IMG/VR virus record: IMGVR_UViG_3300032073_000008
Location: 32,001 to 96,000 of that record
From: a virus
DNA length: 64,000 nucleotides
Strand: one strand, 5' to 3'
The notes under the pieces were generated by a model. That model had not been told where the DNA came from and did not search any database. It saw only the letters and a list, made by a program, of their open reading frames with translations. This document shows positions 3,893 to 16,791 of this stretch, one piece after another; the stretch's first letter is position 1, and the number at the start of each line of letters is the position of its first letter. The translations under genes were made by a program, and so were the position numbers.

Positions 3893-4441
3893 CTACATAA
3901 GATTTTCAATAAAGCCAATAATTTTTTTCGTATCTTCAGGGACATTGTGTTCAAAAGCATGGACACATCCAGCTTCGCCCATCAATATTTTTTCCCCAAA
4001 CATATCTTCAATGTTAGCAACTTTCGTTACTCGCCCATTGATAAATGTTTCTGATTGATCAGAACCTCTATCAGCATAACGCTGTTCACGAACAGCATCA
4101 TCTGTTTTTAATACTATAATTGTTAGATCATGCCCTGCTCTCTTCACAGCCTCAAAGAACTTAGAAGAAGTCAATCTGTCACCCTCGAACACTACGACAG
4201 GTGATGGATTGTTTTCTAGGTATTCAATTGCCATTGGCTGTACTGCCATTGACAGTTTATCAGTACCAGCAAACACTTCTCCTTCATCATATTTACCAAA
4301 CAAACGGATATCTCCAGAAACATAACCATCAAGCAACTTAACTGGAGTATCTTTAGTCCACTCTCGTTTTGACATCCACTCACGCATAAGTGTTGTTTTT
4401 CCAGTTCCTGGAATTCCAATAATACCAATCACTTTACTCAT
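3893..4441 (-). CDS. P-loop nucleotide/DNA-base kinase (candidate 5-hydroxymethylpyrimidine-DNA kinase)
   Basis: GIPGTGKTT Walker A, VVVFEGDRL; last gene of the modification operon with an ATGA overlap to the TET/JBP gene. Confidence 0.7.
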   Translation of the reverse strand: MSKVIGIIGIPGTGKTTLMREWMSKREWTKDTPVKLLDGYVSGDIRLFGKYDEGEVFAGTDKLSMAVQPMAIEYLENNPSPVVVFEGDRLTSSKFFEAVKRAGHDLTIIVLKTDDAVREQRYADRGSDQSETFINGRVTKVANIEDMFGEKILMGEAGCVHAFEHNVPEDTKKIIGFIENLM

Positions 4442-5826
4442 GAAAAGAATCCTTCTAATGATGACTTTGTCACAACAGCTTCTGGATGATATTGCGATAA
4501 CATTCCTTCACCGCCTTTCTGTTTCAGATAATCATACCACTCATCTTCAGCCCACATATTTGGCGAAACACCATTCCAAAATTCTTTCCACAACTTGTGG
4601 TTCTTATTGAGTCTGCGATCATCAACATATTGTCTACGCAGTTTTTCATATTCCCAAGAACCAACCTCAAGCATTTTTTCACGGAAGTAGCATACAAGAG
4701 ATATGCGTTCCATTTCTTCAATAGTGGTTCCAGCAGGTGGTTTCAGTTCAGTGTTACCATGAATGCCACCATGATTATTGATCAACAAAAGATCTCCTGG
4801 ACGGATATTGATACCTACACGAAACTCTGGAAGGACAAGATAACCACCTTCCCAATTCTTTTCTTTAGCAACAACAGTAAGGTTTGAAAATCCTTCATTC
4901 AAATCACCAGCATCTCTGTGAGCTGCAGTTCTGAAGTTTTTATTTACAGTAATCGTAGTGAACGGTGTATCTTCACCAGCAACACGAAAGCGTGGATCTA
5001 GCTTGCTTGCAGCTTCGTTTTGAATACCATAACGAATAGGTAAATGCTCCTTAAATTTGTCAGCTAATTGACGCATGAAAGGATAGCACTTCTCATAGAC
5101 AGGATAGTTGTTCTCTGTATACGCAGTTGCTCGACCGTATGGAATACGAGGATATCGATCAAAGAATCCAGCAATACCTGACAACACCATGTTAGCATAT
5201 GTTGTCTCAGAGATATAGTTCTTTTGAGTTGCCTTTGCGTCTTTCTGAGCATCCTCTGCTGACATACCTTGCCATTCAGCAACCTTGTCATTGAAGAATG
5301 ATTCGTAATTATAACCACTATCAGTGATCTTAGATCTGATCCAAACTATACCACGAGATTCACCTGCTGTAATTGAAGCATGTTTTGCTCTGATTCTTTC
5401 TACTGGATCAGTGTCATCTTCAAACAGAGAAACTTCACGCTCAGCAAAGTGCTTCATAATATCAAGCTGTTCTTCAGTTACCCAATCACGACCGCCTTGC
5501 TTTGCTCCTTTTGGACCAGCAGCAAGACCACGATTTTGTGTAGGTAATGCAGCACCTAATAATCCTTCATAAGCACCGTGCTGTTGTTCTTCAGTAAAAA
5601 CATTTTTGCGAAACTTAAAGATAATGTTATCTTCATTATTCTCACCACCAAACCCAGCAGGAGCATAGAAGTCAGTATCTTCTTCACAAATAAAATCCCA
5701 GTCAGTATCTTCCATATATTGACCGAGTTTGTGTTCACAATCATCCCAAAACTTGGCTGTAATGATTCTGACATTGTTTACATTATCTACCTTAACATCA
5801 TACTTTTCGTTTATCACACCAATCAT
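4438..5826 (-). CDS. TET/JBP-family 2OG-Fe(II) DNA dioxygenase
   Basis: FTTITVNKNFRTAAHRDAGD (HxD), GGYLVLPE..V..RPGDLL, HGNT (distal His), ERISLVCYFREKM (RxS). Confidence 0.88.
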   Translation of the reverse strand: MIGVINEKYDVKVDNVNNVRIITAKFWDDCEHKLGQYMEDTDWDFICEEDTDFYAPAGFGGENNEDNIIFKFRKNVFTEEQQHGAYEGLLGAALPTQNRGLAAGPKGAKQGGRDWVTEEQLDIMKHFAEREVSLFEDDTDPVERIRAKHASITAGESRGIVWIRSKITDSGYNYESFFNDKVAEWQGMSAEDAQKDAKATQKNYISETTYANMVLSGIAGFFDRYPRIPYGRATAYTENNYPVYEKCYPFMRQLADKFKEHLPIRYGIQNEAASKLDPRFRVAGEDTPFTTITVNKNFRTAAHRDAGDLNEGFSNLTVVAKEKNWEGGYLVLPEFRVGINIRPGDLLLINNHGGIHGNTELKPPAGTTIEEMERISLVCYFREKMLEVGSWEYEKLRRQYVDDRRLNKNHKLWKEFWNGVSPNMWAEDEWYDYLKQKGGEGMLSQYHPEAVVTKSSLEGFFS

Positions 5827-6833
5827 ATCATAAATCTCTCTATTCCAACATTACTCATTTCATTTGTAAAAGTATTCATATGGTCTATCTTCCCAGTGTC
5901 TAGGAATATCTCCATTTTACTCTTACTTATCGAATTAGTCAAGTATTCATTTCTCAATGTCTCTTTTCTAGCATCCCACATGGGTGTCCAGTCAATACCA
6001 TCCCATCCATCTCTCTCCACTTGCTTTATTTCTTCAGCTTGTCTGTCAATATAATAACCAAGATAACGACCTCTACTCTTGCGAAACAGTTTCTTAAATG
6101 AACACAGTGCTGTTTCCATAGCAAAAAAGTCTGCTTTGCTCTCAGCATTTGGGTGTGTGCGTTTTACATCTTCGAGTATTTTCTTTCCTTCTCCTTCCAT
6201 CCATTGTATTTGATCATCTTCGAGCTTTTTATTCACCCAATCATCTTTACCTAAAGCATAACAAAGACCATTCCGATGAGATCGAGATCCAGAATAGTCA
6301 TGTAACCATAGACTTGGAACATCAACATTGAGACCAGCACACTGCTTTAGAGTTTGGATATAAAACCAAGATGTGTATCTTCCGAACTTGTGTAATGAAG
6401 TTACAGAATCCCAAACTTTTTGGAAGTTTTGATATTTGTCGCCACGACATAACTCTTCAAATGCATCTTCTTGTTTCCTACCACCAACCCATTCTTTATA
6501 GGAAACAAATTGATCAGCAAGATGACCTTTATTCCATTTTGTATCTGTTTGATATCTGAGACGCGAATAGTTTTCATTGTTCCATTCACGCAAACGATCA
6601 ACACCAACCAACTCCATATCAGGGAACTCATTCCAGATAAGGTATGCTGTTGGGAAGTTGTATGTTGTTCCATATAACCAACAGAGCCATAACTTCTGTT
6701 CTGTGTTATATTCAAACCGATCAAAGAAGTAATTTGTGAGATACAATGCTGAGTCACAATCTTCTATCTCAAGACTCCACTTAAACCAGTTGACAAATGC
6801 TTGTCTACGATGTTCACTTAATCTATAATCCAC
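5823..6833 (-). CDS. Alpha-glutamyl/putrescinyl-thymine pyrophosphorylase clade-2-like amino acid:DNA transferase
   Basis: WLYGTTY, RYQTDTKWNKG, FGRYTSWFY, GSRSHRNGL, ETALCSFKK, RYLGYYIDRQ; GTG start overlaps the GNAT stop. Confidence 0.8.
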   Translation of the reverse strand: MDYRLSEHRRQAFVNWFKWSLEIEDCDSALYLTNYFFDRFEYNTEQKLWLCWLYGTTYNFPTAYLIWNEFPDMELVGVDRLREWNNENYSRLRYQTDTKWNKGHLADQFVSYKEWVGGRKQEDAFEELCRGDKYQNFQKVWDSVTSLHKFGRYTSWFYIQTLKQCAGLNVDVPSLWLHDYSGSRSHRNGLCYALGKDDWVNKKLEDDQIQWMEGEGKKILEDVKRTHPNAESKADFFAMETALCSFKKLFRKSRGRYLGYYIDRQAEEIKQVERDGWDGIDWTPMWDARKETLRNEYLTNSISKSKMEIFLDTGKIDHMNTFTNEMSNVGIERFMI

Positions 6834-7489
6834 TAAAAGAATTCCTCTAGAGTGTTTGGCTCATCACCTATTAATTTATCACGCATCCAAAACTCTCCTA
6901 CAGAAGAAATAGCTTCTTCTACAGTAGCAGTCTTTTTCTTACCAAAGCCATGAGACTCAAGCGATTCATCAAACAATTGTTTGATCACCTTTGGATCTTT
7001 AGGCAAAGCCAGATGCGGGACATTAATTGCTGTTGCCCTAAATGTGCACTGCTCCCTGATAGAAGGAAACAGTGGTTGATCAGAACGCAACGACCCAGTT
7101 GGATCAACAGCCCAAAATATCAAACCATTTCTTTTATGCCAAGTTATAGAAGATGGAGTGCAAGATATTTTCAAACGACTCATGCCATTATTAAAAGCAT
7201 CACTCATTACTCTTTCCCAGATAGCTGTAGCATATCCCTTTCCTTCATGACCTTGCCTAGTTACAATCTCATATAGATTAATATATCTCGATCTTTGACT
7301 ATAAGTAGCAAACACAAATGCAACCATTTCGCCATCAACCTCTAAGGCAAATGGCTTATTATCTTTTTCATAGTTTTTAAAACGAAACCACAAACTGTGT
7401 GATGAATTGAGGAACTTTGTATTTTTTCCTTCAGGGGAGTTCTCAATGACTTTCTCAATCATCTCTTGTGAACATCTTACTATGCGCAT
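6833..7489 (-). CDS. GNAT-family acetyltransferase
   Basis: NLYEIVTRQGHEGKGYAT acetyl-CoA-binding motif A; WHKRNG. Confidence 0.8.
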   Translation of the reverse strand: MRIVRCSQEMIEKVIENSPEGKNTKFLNSSHSLWFRFKNYEKDNKPFALEVDGEMVAFVFATYSQRSRYINLYEIVTRQGHEGKGYATAIWERVMSDAFNNGMSRLKISCTPSSITWHKRNGLIFWAVDPTGSLRSDQPLFPSIREQCTFRATAINVPHLALPKDPKVIKQLFDESLESHGFGKKKTATVEEAISSVGEFWMRDKLIGDEPNTLEEFF

Positions 7490-8172
7490 TGTAAGTCTCT
7501 CACTAATGCACCACCACGCAATGGAGAAGATTTCTCTAGCTTTCCATTGTATGTGTATGTTACATACATGTCTGTTCTTTGTTGATTTGTAATTGCACTT
7601 CTTTTTAGAATATCTTTTGTTGATGCGAATACAATACCATTATTTCGCTCACTATACCATAGTGGTCTTGCTTCATTTCTAAATCCAGTTAGACTCTTAT
7701 CTTTTTTGATACGACAGACAGCCATACTTGATGGGTAAAAATCATTCAATGGATCATTACCAGCCTCATATGATTTCAATATCAATTCACTGTCATTAGC
7801 TGTTTCAGTGTTATATTTCCACTTCTCTTTATCTTCTTGTGATATAACACCATTGTGAACAATACTTTGATCACCATTAGAGAAAGGTTGATTGTATCGA
7901 AGATCAGATGTTGAATAGCGAATATGACCAATAAGGTAGATACCACCATCCTCATTTATCATACTCTGAATTGGATATTTTGCGAGGAACTCATCACAAG
8001 GGATGCCCTCTTTTATCGTATATATCTTAGAATCTTTGACATATGATACACCAGTCGCATGTTTCCCTCTTATCATAGATTCGCGGAAAATACGCTCTAC
8101 CAGTTTAACATTCTCAATACTACCACGACTGACAGAGGATCTCTCTAACCAAACGCCTATCACACCACACAT
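7480..8172 (-). CDS. Class II (Ntn) glutamine amidotransferase, stand-alone glutaminase domain
   Basis: N-terminal MCGVIG, RG.HATG, GHIRYST, NQPF, HNGVI, NDSE. Confidence 0.9.
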   Translation of the reverse strand: MCGVIGVWLERSSVSRGSIENVKLVERIFRESMIRGKHATGVSYVKDSKIYTIKEGIPCDEFLAKYPIQSMINEDGGIYLIGHIRYSTSDLRYNQPFSNGDQSIVHNGVISQEDKEKWKYNTETANDSELILKSYEAGNDPLNDFYPSSMAVCRIKKDKSLTGFRNEARPLWYSERNNGIVFASTKDILKRSAITNQQRTDMYVTYTYNGKLEKSSPLRGGALVRDLQCA

Positions 8173-14498: not shown

Positions 14499-14527
14499 AT
14501 TATATCGTATTACTGAATTGTAGTCAA
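14499..14527 (-). promoter_or_regulatory. Sigma70 promoter for uvsY-uvsW
   Basis: TTGACT-N17-TATAAT. Confidence 0.8.
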
Positions 14528-15031
14528 CTCATATTTCCTATAATTAAAACTGACTTGGGCTGAAAGATAATCAACATCAGAGTTCTCTATACTAAACTCT
14601 AATGATGAAAGATTAGTTGGGTACATATCAACAAATTTAACTTCAATATTTGGTGTCATGGCTGCAGTCGTGATAATCATTGAACCATCAGAATATATAT
14701 TACCAGTGTTGTCTTTAGTTCTTCCAAGAGCCTTTGATTGATCAAAACTGTCTGGATAACCAAGACCAATCAACCAATCGTATATTTCAGAAAAGTTTTT
14801 CATATCTTCATCAACGCGGAATGTTAATTGCAACGCACCAAAGTCTAGCTTGTCACCTGGAATTGGAAGTTTCGCGAATGGATTTTGAACTTCAGTTGGT
14901 GCACTAAGAGAGATATCAGGTATCGCTGCAGCAGTACAAAAATAATTTACATGTGGCAATCTTTGTACGCTGAATCTAAACCCTATTGGAGAAAGAAAAC
15001 TTTTATTTGTTGGTTGTGATGGAACAGTCAT
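14510..15031 (-). CDS. gp3: Tail completion / tail tube terminator
   Basis: FLSPIGFRF, V.YFC....PDI, FRVDEDM.NF.EIYDW, P..LS.L.F. Confidence 0.9.
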   Translation of the reverse strand: MTVPSQPTNKSFLSPIGFRFSVQRLPHVNYFCTAAAIPDISLSAPTEVQNPFAKLPIPGDKLDFGALQLTFRVDEDMKNFSEIYDWLIGLGYPDSFDQSKALGRTKDNTGNIYSDGSMIITTAAMTPNIEVKFVDMYPTNLSSLEFSIENSDVDYLSAQVSFNYRKYELTTIQ

Positions 15032-15057: not shown

Positions 15058-15065
15058 TATTTATA
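15058..15065 (-). promoter_or_regulatory. Late promoter for gp3
   Basis: TATAAATA. Confidence 0.8.
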
Positions 15066-15071
15066 ATCAAT

Positions 15072-15100
15072 AAAAAAAGGGGAATATTAAACTCCCCTTT
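15072..15100 (-). terminator. Rho-independent terminator after the YRGV peptide
   Basis: AAAGGGGAGT-TTAAT-ATTCCCCTTT followed by a T run. Confidence 0.85.
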
Positions 15101-15117
15101 CTTCCACGCACTAACAA

Positions 15118-15216
15118 TTAACTGACCTTAACACCTCTGTAAACACGCTCAGATCTAGTTTTATTTTTGGCAGATTTTTTAGGTGCAACTCGCACACCAC
15201 GATATATAATAGTCAT
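15118..15216 (-). CDS. 32-aa DUF4278-like basic peptide with two YRGV motifs
   Basis: AGGAGA SD; MTIIYRGVRVAPKKSAKNKTRSERVYRGVKVS*; not in the ORF track. Confidence 0.85.
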   Translation of the reverse strand: MTIIYRGVRVAPKKSAKNKTRSERVYRGVKVS

Positions 15217-15243
15217 AGCTATCTCCTATAGTTAAATAAAAGA

Positions 15244-15297
15244 TGCGTTCCTTCGACACAATTGTCTACTTCCGTTCACTTATAGTGAATGAACGAT
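15244..15297 (-). ncRNA. glnA-type (glutamine-I) riboswitch
   Basis: AUCGUUCAUUCACUAUAAGUGAACGGAAGUAGACAAUUGUGUCGAAGGAACGCA: P1 CGUUC/GAACG, P2 UUCAC/GUGAA, GGAAGUA/GAA E-loop, P3 GACA/UGUC. Confidence 0.88.
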
Positions 15298-15350
15298 GTA
15301 GTCTTTTGACCGATGACTTATCGGAGCATATCAGAATAGATATACACCAT

Positions 15351-15358
15351 TATTTATA
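15351..15358 (-). promoter_or_regulatory. Late promoter driving the riboswitch-peptide unit
   Basis: TATAAATA just downstream of the gp23 terminator. Confidence 0.8.
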
Positions 15359-15363
15359 AGAAT

Positions 15364-15390
15364 AAAAAAAGAGGCTCCGAAGAGCCTCTT
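15364..15390 (-). terminator. gp23 terminator with cUUCGg tetraloop
   Basis: AAGAGGCTC-TTCG-GAGCCTCTT followed by a T run. Confidence 0.92.
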
Positions 15391-15423: not shown

Positions 15424-16791
15424 TTATACCAAGTTAGCAACTTTAACGCGACGGTAGTAAGAGTTTTTACTAGCAAAGTTAACAGCACTTGCAGCAAATG
15501 GGTTCGCAACCATGCCGTAGCGAGTTTTGAAACCGATTTTTGGTTGGAAGGTATTCTCACCAACCGCACGAACCATTTGTAGAGGCACATATGGGCAGTA
15601 GAATAAACCAGCATCAAAGGCACTATCACCTTTGTAACCAATAGTGAAGTAGTTGTTAGTTGTATCAGAGAAGTATGGATCAATGTATACTTTGATACGA
15701 CCATTTAATACACCAGCGAAAGTGTTACCAGTGTCATCTACTTGCAAGTTGTTGCTAAGTGCAGGAGCATAGTCAAGAACACCAGCCATTTGAAGAGCAG
15801 AAGCTACATCAGATGAAGTGATCAAAACATTACCTTTACCGCGACGAGTTGCTTTACCGATTGCGTTAGCTTCACGCTCGATTTGGAACATTAAGCCTTT
15901 GAACTTCTCAACAGACCAGCGACCGTTTGAGTCAGTGTCTAGATCGAAAACACCATTATTAGTTACAAGACCTTGTGCACCGATAGTAGCAGTGTAGTTG
16001 ATAGTACGAACAACTTCACGGTTAATTTCAGCAAGGATCTCAGTAGATAAGATGTTGCTTAACTCTTGCTCAGCATCTAAACCATGGACAGCTTTAAGAT
16101 CTTGAGCTAATTCCATAGTGTATTCTGCTTTTAACGCACGAGATACAGCTGTTACACTGATTTTCTCGATAGAGAACGCCATTTCAGCAAAAGAGTTACC
16201 AGCTGCATCGCCAAGAGCTTCAGCAGTAGCAGTTGACATACCAGTGTGAACAGTATAGCCAGAACCAGAAGCAGCTTCAGTTGCATCTTGACCAGCTTGA
16301 GTAGTACCAGCAGCACCATCGATTACACCACCGAAGTTTGCTGTGTTAGCAGTCTCACTACCGATTGCAGAGAATGAAGTGTCAGCTTCGTTAAATAAGG
16401 CTTCAGTACCAGCTTGAGTATTGAGGCGTGATTTCATCGCAAAGATAAGACCAGTTGGACCAGTCATTGGCTGTACGCCACAAATATCATAAGCGATAAG
16501 GTTAGGCATTGAGCGACGCACTAAGCTGATTAGGACAGGATCGAAAGTATCGACACTACCGTCACCAGCAGTAGAGCTAGATGCACCCATTGCGTTTACT
16601 GGTGCTGCTTCGCCTAAAAGCGAAGGAGCGTGAGCACCGCCAGACTGAGCAGATTGCTCAGCTGCAGCTCGTTCTTGGTTTTCTAAAAGAGTTGCAACAG
16701 TTGAACGCTTGTGAGCGTCAGTGATCGAAGGAAGATCAGCGTGCTCAAGAACAGGTTGCCACTTCTTTTGTAGACTATCAGATTGAATCAT
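15424..16791 (-). CDS. gp23: Major capsid protein
   Basis: KWQPVLEH, DICGVQPMTGPTGLIFAM, SRALKAEYTMELAQDLKAVHGLDAE, FQPKIGFKTRYG. Confidence 0.99.
   Translation of the reverse strand: MIQSDSLQKKWQPVLEHADLPSITDAHKRSTVATLLENQERAAAEQSAQSGGAHAPSLLGEAAPVNAMGASSSTAGDGSVDTFDPVLISLVRRSMPNLIAYDICGVQPMTGPTGLIFAMKSRLNTQAGTEALFNEADTSFSAIGSETANTANFGGVIDGAAGTTQAGQDATEAASGSGYTVHTGMSTATAEALGDAAGNSFAEMAFSIEKISVTAVSRALKAEYTMELAQDLKAVHGLDAEQELSNILSTEILAEINREVVRTINYTATIGAQGLVTNNGVFDLDTDSNGRWSVEKFKGLMFQIEREANAIGKATRRGKGNVLITSSDVASALQMAGVLDYAPALSNNLQVDDTGNTFAGVLNGRIKVYIDPYFSDTTNNYFTIGYKGDSAFDAGLFYCPYVPLQMVRAVGENTFQPKIGFKTRYGMVANPFAASAVNFASKNSYYRRVKVANLV

Follow-up and report, generated by a model that had tools for sequence, protein, structure and literature searches.

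What does a glutamine riboswitch do between the major capsid gene and a tail gene of a T4-like phage, and what is encoded by the very short open reading frame (ORF) that lies behind it? The question is raised by a stretch of 64,000 nt (hereafter the window, to which all coordinates refer) corresponding to positions 32,001-96,000 of the IMG/VR record IMGVR_UViG_3300032073_000008, in which the structural and replication genes of a marine T4-like phage lie on the minus strand. The local gene order is gp22, gp23, the unit in question, a tail gene in the gp3 position, UvsY, UvsW, and gp55. The initial annotation had described a self-contained late unit between gp23 and gp3 and, indeed, a terminator, a late promoter of its own, an aptamer, a ribosome site, an ORF, and a second terminator were all found there. 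We suggest that the unit is probably a 293-nt glutamine-gated late cassette sitting in the gp23-gp3 spacer.

Aptamer and Probable Translational Control

The glnA-type aptamer that had been placed at 15244-15297 was checked with the Rfam covariance model, a search that the initial annotation had itself proposed. A full-length match to RF01739 (Glutamine, glnA RNA), i.e., a type-1 glutamine riboswitch aptamer, extends over positions 15242-15297 of the minus strand; its 59.6 bits exceed the gathering score of 35 (E 1.3e-10), and all 53 model positions are covered. It is the sole Rfam match both in the window and in the whole 110-kb record. In the consensus alignment, the stems P1, P1a, and P2 are all formed and the conserved ACGGAAGUAG and GAAGGAACGC cores are fully matched. 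To judge from the sequence, this is almost certainly a real glutamine aptamer.

The expression platform is a predicted hairpin at 15218-15246 in which the 3' tail of the aptamer, composed of the last G of P1 (15246), the conserved C (15245), and then AUCUUUUAU, pairs with the ribosome-site region; the Shine-Dalgarno sequence AGGAGA (15222-15227) lies within it, 5 nt before the ATG. The hairpin has a folding energy of -9.0 kcal/mol (z -2.97, for a 43-nt piece) and is present in the minimum-energy fold of the whole leader. For comparison, we used at least 120 IMG/VR loci with a shared aptamer core, 113 of which could be assessed for an ORF and 88 of which are distinct sequences. Among the matches listed, the 16 nt that directly follow the aptamer pair with four or more bases of the ribosome-site window in 84% of the 88 distinct viral loci, and an ATG ORF of 17-65 amino acids (aa), led by a ribosome-binding site (RBS), begins 18-38 nt after the aptamer in 109 of the 113 assessable ones. 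In an alignment of 44 sequences, picked by hand among loci that already looked paired and thus biased in favor of the helix (unlike the 84% above, for which no selection was made), RNAalifold returned a helix CACCU/GGGUG with CG-to-UA exchanges at two positions. This helix is 96.4% paired versus 89.2% in shuffled alignments, none of 500 reaching the real value, with 21 double-change cells where 7.5 were expected; sliding it by one to three columns as a control leaves 36-62% of the positions paired.

This arrangement has a counterpart in the gifB leader of Synechocystis, where the conserved C and the bases following it have been postulated to pair with the ribosome site, the helix being melted by glutamine binding (Klaehn et al. 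2018, PMC6212724); that riboswitch has been shown experimentally to be an ON switch operating at the translational level (PMC6212724). Since the helix recurs with compensatory changes across the IMG/VR phage loci, control is most likely translational, and the folding models allow us to hold with good confidence that it is exerted through the pairing of the aptamer tail with the ribosome site; by analogy with gifB, the switch probably works in the ON direction. Transcription attenuation was also considered and rejected, as no U-run follows the masking hairpin. On the whole, the regulatory reading is well supported.

The Encoded Peptide

The ORF (15118-15216, with the ATG at 15214-15216) encodes a basic, DUF4278-like peptide of 32 aa (pI 11.5, 10 Lys+Arg) carrying two YRG motifs, YRGVRV and YRGVKV. 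The AGGAGA sequence, the peptide, and its two YRGV motifs can be read directly in the sequence as the initial annotation had reported; the distance from the GAAGGAAC aptamer core to the ATG is 30 nt, with the two YRGV motifs directly behind the glutamine aptamer. Peptides of this kind are encoded by 26 viral loci among the matches listed, and 18 of the 19 viral YRG peptides that were scanned match the Pfam family DUF4278 (PF14105) at E <= 0.01 (best 3e-9). The peptide of the window gives a sub-threshold match to the same family (E 0.0045, profile positions 1-31 of 57), being shorter than the model; the evidence for the family further includes matches to PHROG 5049 and 545, both of which carry annotations without a function. 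Five YRG peptides gave no match in NCBIfam at E <= 10, nor did the 32-aa peptide yield any when 50,697 phage records were searched by tblastn, and a sequence search of the PDB with the peptide profile gave no meaningful match. The AlphaFold model (pLDDT 72) consists of two beta-hairpins, each with a YRG motif at its centre.

The codon differences among near-identical viral YRG ORFs amount to 74 synonymous versus 13 non-synonymous in frame, compared with 12/78 and 4/86 in the other frames; when two clusters of these ORFs are considered, the in-frame values are 74 versus 13 and 78 versus 44, the other frames again showing mostly non-synonymous differences. Such an in-frame excess of synonymous changes indicates that the viral YRG ORFs are real genes, and from the sequence it appears very likely that the peptide of the window is translated.

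Transcription Signals and Neighboring Genes

The initial annotation had placed a late promoter at 15351-15358, and the sequence TATAAATA is present there. All 13 copies of this motif in the window lie on the minus strand, with 5.7 expected and a number of 13 reached by one of 100 shuffles, and copies directly precede gp3, gp23, and gp22; moreover, the phage encodes the late sigma factor gp55 (phrog_234, E 1e-60). Both features of a T4-type late transcription unit, TATAAATA upstream and a phage gp55, are thus found, with a predicted transcript start. A gene on the opposite strand (a 38-aa ORF at 15243-15359) was rejected, the nearby genes and late promoters all being on the minus strand.

The 5' leader (15298-15350) contains a hairpin (15326-15345) beside the predicted transcript start and a second conserved stretch able to form a hairpin. 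It is about 95% conserved in L342 and L341, two loci harboring a close copy of the cassette, and in L338 and L340, two loci with related cassettes, the 5' hairpin is retained although its sequence differs (GUAUAUC.../GUAUACUA...). The 5' stem may therefore be under selection, possibly with a role in mRNA stability.

Upstream of the cassette, the major capsid protein gene gp23 (15424-16791, minus strand; Pfam Gp23, E 2e-147) is followed by an intrinsic terminator (15369-15390, minus strand) with a 9-bp stem, five GC pairs, and a T-run, which should insulate the cassette from gp23 transcription; an alignment revealed that its hairpin is also kept in relatives devoid of the cassette. The cassette is closed by a second intrinsic terminator, which had been claimed at 15072-15100 and was found at 15072-15104 (minus strand). 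In this region, three terminator-like sites occur in 900 nt, with 0.4 expected. The downstream neighbor is the tail gene in the gp3 position (14510-15031, minus strand; phrog_45 tail tube, E 2e-34), which has its own late promoter.

Insertion Borders and Distribution of the Cassette

The cassette corresponds to an extra 293 nt in the gp23-gp3 spacer, bounded by a 20-nt direct repeat (15351-15370 and 15058-15077, minus strand; spacing 293). Each copy of the repeat consists of the T-tail of a terminator and a late promoter TATAAATA, the one on the left being that of the cassette and the one on the right (15058-15065) that of gp3. Relatives of the gp3-position protein were found in 80 IMG/VR loci, 66 of which have a measurable gp23-gp3 spacer, and none of these 66 spacers contains the aptamer. 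In the closest relatives (94%, 89%, and 81% identity of gp3), the spacer measures 111-118 nt and embeds one terminator and one TATAAATA; the alignment with the first of them (L128, 94%) shows the exact borders of the insertion.

Further copies of the cassette were retrieved by an exact search for the platform sequence of the window. In L342, 135 of the 142 nt from the promoter to the ATG are identical to the window, whereas the ORF is 81% identical; its peptide is also 32 aa long, in the same frame and with both YRG motifs retained. In L342 and L341, which share this leader, aptamer, and platform, the cassette is flanked by genes homologous to another region of the phage genome, at about 101-107 kb of the record (45-65% amino-acid identity). 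Related cassettes also occupy the gp23-gp3 spacer of L338, L340, L337, and L056, whose capsid proteins are 62-80% identical to that of the window and whose peptides of 36-59 aa contain the YRG repeat two or three times. On both sides of the cassettes of L338 and L340, there is an almost exact repeat of about 38 nt, made up of terminator and promoter. A blastn search of the cassette against the 50,697 phage records returned only chance matches of 26 nt.

In T4-like phages, terminator/early-promoter motifs known as PeSL mediate modular shuffling (Arbiol 2010, PMC2839356; Comeau 2014, PMC4122927). The cassette resembles these modules in being a small gene between repeated terminator-promoter junctions, in being present or absent at the junction in relatives, and in occurring in several contexts; it differs from them in having the late TATAAATA promoter instead of an early sigma-70 one and a core structural site instead of a hyperplastic region, and recombination is in this case inferred. 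With a composite repeat on both sides, presence or absence at the junction between relatives, and the same module in other contexts, the cassette appears from the sequence to behave like a small mobile unit.

A late promoter precedes the aptamer in 24 of 123 viral loci among the matches listed, plus 14 with one-base variants, against a background of 1.6% per 200 nt; in the other viral aptamer loci, the promoter is of an early type or the unit shares a transcript with the gene upstream of it. The mixture of promoter types across loci implies that late timing is one option among several.

Three observations concern the surroundings of such cassettes. In L056 (5314-5410, minus strand), the YRG ORF is followed, in the same cassette, by a second RBS-led ORF, whose product of about 31 aa is hydrophobic and membrane-like in its C-terminal half. 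In L047 (5600-6120, plus strand), a triple-YRG cassette is flanked on either side by an early promoter of the sigma-70 type, the two promoters being near-identical and having a terminator between them; by sequence, this arrangement is a classical PeSL-like one, with the same kind of cassette apparently wired for early expression. Lastly, L149-L157 and L161 (gp3 65-68% identical) have gp23-gp3 spacers of 434-472 nt in which no Rfam match was found and which embed other small ORFs, e.g., one for a basic peptide of 33 aa. Small inserts thus seem to accumulate preferentially at the gp23-gp3 junction.

Mechanism and Alternative Explanations

The mechanism that we favor is the following. Late in infection, a gp55-type late promoter, recognized by its motif and context, would give a short transcript comprising the leader, the aptamer, the ribosome site, the 32-codon ORF, and the terminator. 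In the absence of the ligand, the 3' tail of the aptamer would pair with the ribosome-site region and mask the ribosome site, as folding and covariation indicate. At high glutamine, if the Synechocystis gifB leader is a guide, the conserved C after P1 would be engaged in a long-range pair, the adjoining helix would loosen, and translation would follow. The product would be a very basic DUF4278/YRG peptide with two beta-hairpins, whose most likely partner might be a host protein of nitrogen metabolism or signalling, although an action of the peptide on nitrogen metabolism is itself a tentative idea. The cassette, in turn, might be gained and lost through recombination at the repeated terminator/late-promoter junctions.

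Several observations weigh against this scenario. The transcript start of the cassette is a prediction from the promoter position, and the peptide of the window scores below the Pfam threshold of DUF4278 (17.8 versus 25.3 bits). The coding signal of this exact ORF is weak, only 15 codons differing from L342, six of them synonymously. As to the switch, the 44-sequence covariation set was picked by hand from paired-looking loci, about 16% of the loci among the matches listed use another arrangement, and a 9-bp masking hairpin (-5.4 kcal/mol) still forms when P1 is enforced. P1 and this hairpin can therefore coexist, and secondary structure alone leaves the two states non-exclusive; the direction of switching would accordingly rest on the Synechocystis precedent and on tertiary effects that lie beyond the folds.

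The first issue to be weighed is the role of the peptide. According to one possibility, it is an IF17-like glutamine-synthetase inactivating factor, with which the phage would shut down the glutamine synthetase of the host when glutamine is high. The cyanobacterial precedent invoked by the initial annotation is real, since in cyanobacteria it is gifB/IF17 in which this riboswitch class and the YRG/DUF4278 family come together (PMC6212724). Like the inactivating factors, the peptide has a strongly basic character, and hhalign aligns the viral-peptide profile with cyanobacterial IF17 homologues at 91.6% probability (E 8e-7). The match, however, covers columns 3-58 of 151 of IF17: the peptide ends at the N-terminal DUF4278 half, and the IF7-like C-terminal region, whose conserved Arg residues bind glutamine synthetase, is absent. 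The N-terminal moiety of IF17 is dispensable for glutamine-synthetase inhibition and important only for protein stability (review PMC6316151), so that homology by itself does not imply that the peptide controls glutamine synthetase. The short Prochlorococcus homologues are not known to inhibit the enzyme either. The claim that the peptide tunes nitrogen assimilation, as a glutamine-synthetase inhibitor, remains unproven and is weakened by the missing inhibitory domain, and we consider the IF17-like role unlikely. According to a different idea, the YRG hairpins mimic the T-loop of PII (xLYRGxEY, with Tyr51) and compete for uridylyltransferase, AmtB, or other receptors. The best local hhalign match is indeed the T-loop (residues 39-55 for the viral peptides and 45-51 for IF17), the PII sequences of the marine bacterial group SAR86 read ELYRGAEY and ETYRGASY, and a native riboswitch-YRG unit of SAR86 lies about 2 kb from glnK-amtB. 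Yet the probabilities are 6.3% and 1.5% over 17 and 7 columns, which is a motif resemblance; the motifs of the window, YRGVRV and YRGVKV, are without the second Tyr, and the predicted hairpin has RG at the turn, unlike the long flexible T-loop. Homology to PII was rejected as a motif-level match only, and mimicry of the T-loop deserves little credit.

Other explanations question the switch rather than the peptide. The riboswitch might be an OFF switch, or the RNA itself might be functional, e.g., as a decoy or stability element, with an incidental ORF. This would fit the higher conservation of the RNA part in comparison with the ORF (95% versus 81% identity to L342) and the coexistence of P1 with most of the masking hairpin in the secondary-structure model; nevertheless, an RBS-led ORF is kept at a fixed distance in the 109 of 113 viral loci (among the matches listed) mentioned above, the YRG ORFs have a strong coding signature, and the one riboswitch of this class for which the direction has been tested turns expression ON (PMC6212724), all of which makes this explanation improbable. 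It might also be imagined that the riboswitch mainly modulates gp3 by read-through, the cassette being directly upstream of gp3 and on the same strand. In this case, however, the terminator at 15072-15104 and the late promoter of gp3 intervene, relatives have the same gp3 promoter without any cassette, and a near-identical cassette precedes unrelated genes in L342 and L341, so that we give this possibility almost no weight. The glutamine-gated late cassette producing a YRG peptide is, thus, the reading that we retain.

Host of the Phage and Glutamine-Consuming Functions

The record (110 kb, 36.9% G+C) is 61% complete, and at this completeness neither tRNA and transfer-messenger RNA (tmRNA) genes nor psbA, hli, and CsgG were found in it; psbA was not found in two large related fragments either. 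The capsid protein is 60-64% identical to those of Stenotrophomonas, Pelagibacter, OM43, and cyanobacterial phages alike, and the portal gives the same picture, whereas the terminase, 60% identical to Sinorhizobium phages versus 48% to cyanophages, favors alphaproteobacterial phages.

Within the SAR86 order, DUF4278 matches were found in 17 of 151 genomes, eight of them over threshold, and they are located behind RF01739 matches; no DUF4278 match was found in 151 genomes of an alphaproteobacterial order. The SAR86 units are chromosomal and lie between suhB-like and secF/secD, about 2 kb from glnK-amtB. An example is contig C2 of the SAR86-order genome G066 (L330:1299-1659, plus strand; L345:243-1818), with an aptamer of about 138 nt, a 54-aa triple-YRG peptide, and a terminator. 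These units resemble the phage cassette in their type-1 aptamer, short basic multi-YRG peptide, and terminator, with a G+C of 0.35 versus 0.37, and differ from it in the long insertion that brings the aptamer to about 138 nt and in their three-repeat, 54-aa peptides. The peptide of the window scores 17.7 bits against the profile of the SAR86 YRG set versus 15.5 against the cyanobacterial one, which gives no assignment to either type. T4-like capsid genes (61-69% identity) were found in 3 of 266 SAR86-order genomes, without the cassette.

Type-1 aptamers are not restricted to cyanobacteria among bacterial genomes: they precede amt, gltB, porin, and TonB-receptor genes in SAR86, in SAR116, and in single-cell genomes of AT-rich alphaproteobacteria; in proteobacterial metagenome-assembled and single-amplified genomes (L216, L220, L229, L255, L276, and others), the aptamer lies 70-90 nt before those genes. 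These proteobacterial contexts fit earlier metagenome observations (Weinberg 2010). The non-cyanobacterial host proposed in the initial annotation is made plausible by the missing psbA and hli, by the terminase, and by the SAR86 units, which is not a proof; we regard such a host as probable.

The phage had also been said to encode a glutamine-consuming modification enzyme, and this holds true: a class-II glutamine amidotransferase (GATase_6, PF13522) is embedded in a five-gene operon (3893-8172, minus strand) together with, according to Pfam, GNAT, an amino acid:DNA transferase (AADT), a TET/JBP dioxygenase, and a P-loop nucleotide kinase. The operon is a candidate DNA hypermodification pathway. 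A link between the cassette and the amidotransferase is pure speculation.

Comparison with Known Systems

The gifB leader of Synechocystis sp. PCC 6803 is like the cassette in belonging to the same Rfam family, with the aptamer directly before an RBS-led ORF that starts with YRG (DUF4278) repeats, and in the translational ON response, for which a pairing of the ribosome site with the 3' tail and its conserved C has been proposed. It is unlike the cassette in its NtcA-regulated promoter, versus a T4 late promoter in a phage, and in its 149-aa product, versus 32 aa without the IF7-like C-terminus. A glutamine-gated, DUF4278-only peptide without the inhibitory part is instead shared with the type-2 system (Downstream-peptide, RF01704) and the short DUF4278 proteins of Prochlorococcus and Synechococcus (PMM1846/Yfr6), which use another aptamer class, the phage studied here having type 1; marine picocyanobacteria have been reported to harbor type 2 only. 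In several cyanobacteria (L211:327-485, L225:2773-2931, L230:3667-3822, L233:2308-2460 on the minus strand, L263, L297, and L304), the type-1 aptamer is followed directly by a 50-53-aa IF7-like (gifA-type) ORF without YRG repeats; the literature ties the type-1 aptamer to gifB, not to gifA.

The association of the aptamer with short ORFs dates to Weinberg 2010, and two papers (PMC9964418, PMC9602691) mention that T4-like cyanophages have glutamine riboswitches. The isolated phages S-PM2 (a cyanophage), DSL-LC03, Melnitz (a Methylophilales phage), and Mosig (a Pelagibacter phage) are, like the phage of the window, marine and T4-like, with an RF01739-type aptamer and a short ORF 20-30 nt downstream, and S-PM2 and DSL-LC03 likewise encode YRG peptides; in S-PM2, the RF01739-like aptamer (33.3 bits) ends 30 nt before the YRG protein S-PM2p190. 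The aptamer is, by contrast, located in speD-td in S-PM2 and beside ssrA in Melnitz, the peptides of Melnitz and Mosig belong to other families, and none of the four has been described as a late-promoter cassette after gp23.

Aptamers in Melnitz, Mosig, and related metagenomic genomes have been published, the one of Melnitz as controlling tmRNA (Buchholz et al. 2022, PMC9004378). The Melnitz aptamer (L005:1572-1667, plus strand, i.e., MZ577097.1 46469-46564) extends into the 3' end of the tmRNA called by ARAGORN, and 27 nt after it there is an unannotated plus-strand ORF of 32 codons, which is preceded by a strong ribosome site and has the same masking helix. In the record, a coding sequence is annotated on the opposite strand instead, and the 32-codon peptide family recurs in many IMG/VR loci. 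The unannotated ORF and its masking helix render the published tmRNA-control reading doubtful.

Besides the YRG peptides, at least four other families of short viral peptides were observed behind type-1 aptamers, with the following numbers of loci among the matches listed: 28-48-aa W-C-[FY]/YCR peptides (36 loci), 64-65-aa peptides with GTSGY and a C-terminal NNW (14), 45-54-aa peptides ending in DNPFYP, mostly behind tandem aptamers (12), and 50-aa peptides of the Mosig type ending in DPRLQKI (6). Example loci lie among L008-L127 (e.g., L008:2598-2789, minus strand; L015:3025-3171, minus strand; L016:4044-4193, plus strand). The representatives of these four families that were scanned have no significant Pfam match and no PHROG match except phrog_32989. 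In all, the switch and the helix that masks the ribosome site appear to be shared by at least five unrelated peptide families among the matches listed.

Implications

Both the riboswitch and the peptide belong to known families, and a new mechanism is not established. Viral riboswitches are few, and the glutamine class is the commonest one in marine phages; the phage aptamers can now be connected with a conserved platform for translational control and with short ORFs that annotation tends to miss, and in this case near-identical phages differ by the presence of the cassette, the recombination borders of which are clear. With its 32 residues and a defined inducer, the peptide is, moreover, an easy object for pull-down and reporter experiments. 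As the riboswitch-YRG unit is also present in SAR86 chromosomes, the question of what DUF4278 binds is not only a cyanobacterial one.

It might finally be imagined, even though we see only a slim chance of it, that the cassette represents a mobile micro-cassette family, framed by terminator/late-promoter junctions and spreading among T4-like phages of marine heterotrophs, with SAR86 as a candidate host, whose glutamine-gated micropeptides hit nitrogen signalling via a target other than that of IF17, e.g., by PII T-loop mimicry. If this idea were correct, the glutamine status of the cell would be a general late-infection checkpoint for marine phages.

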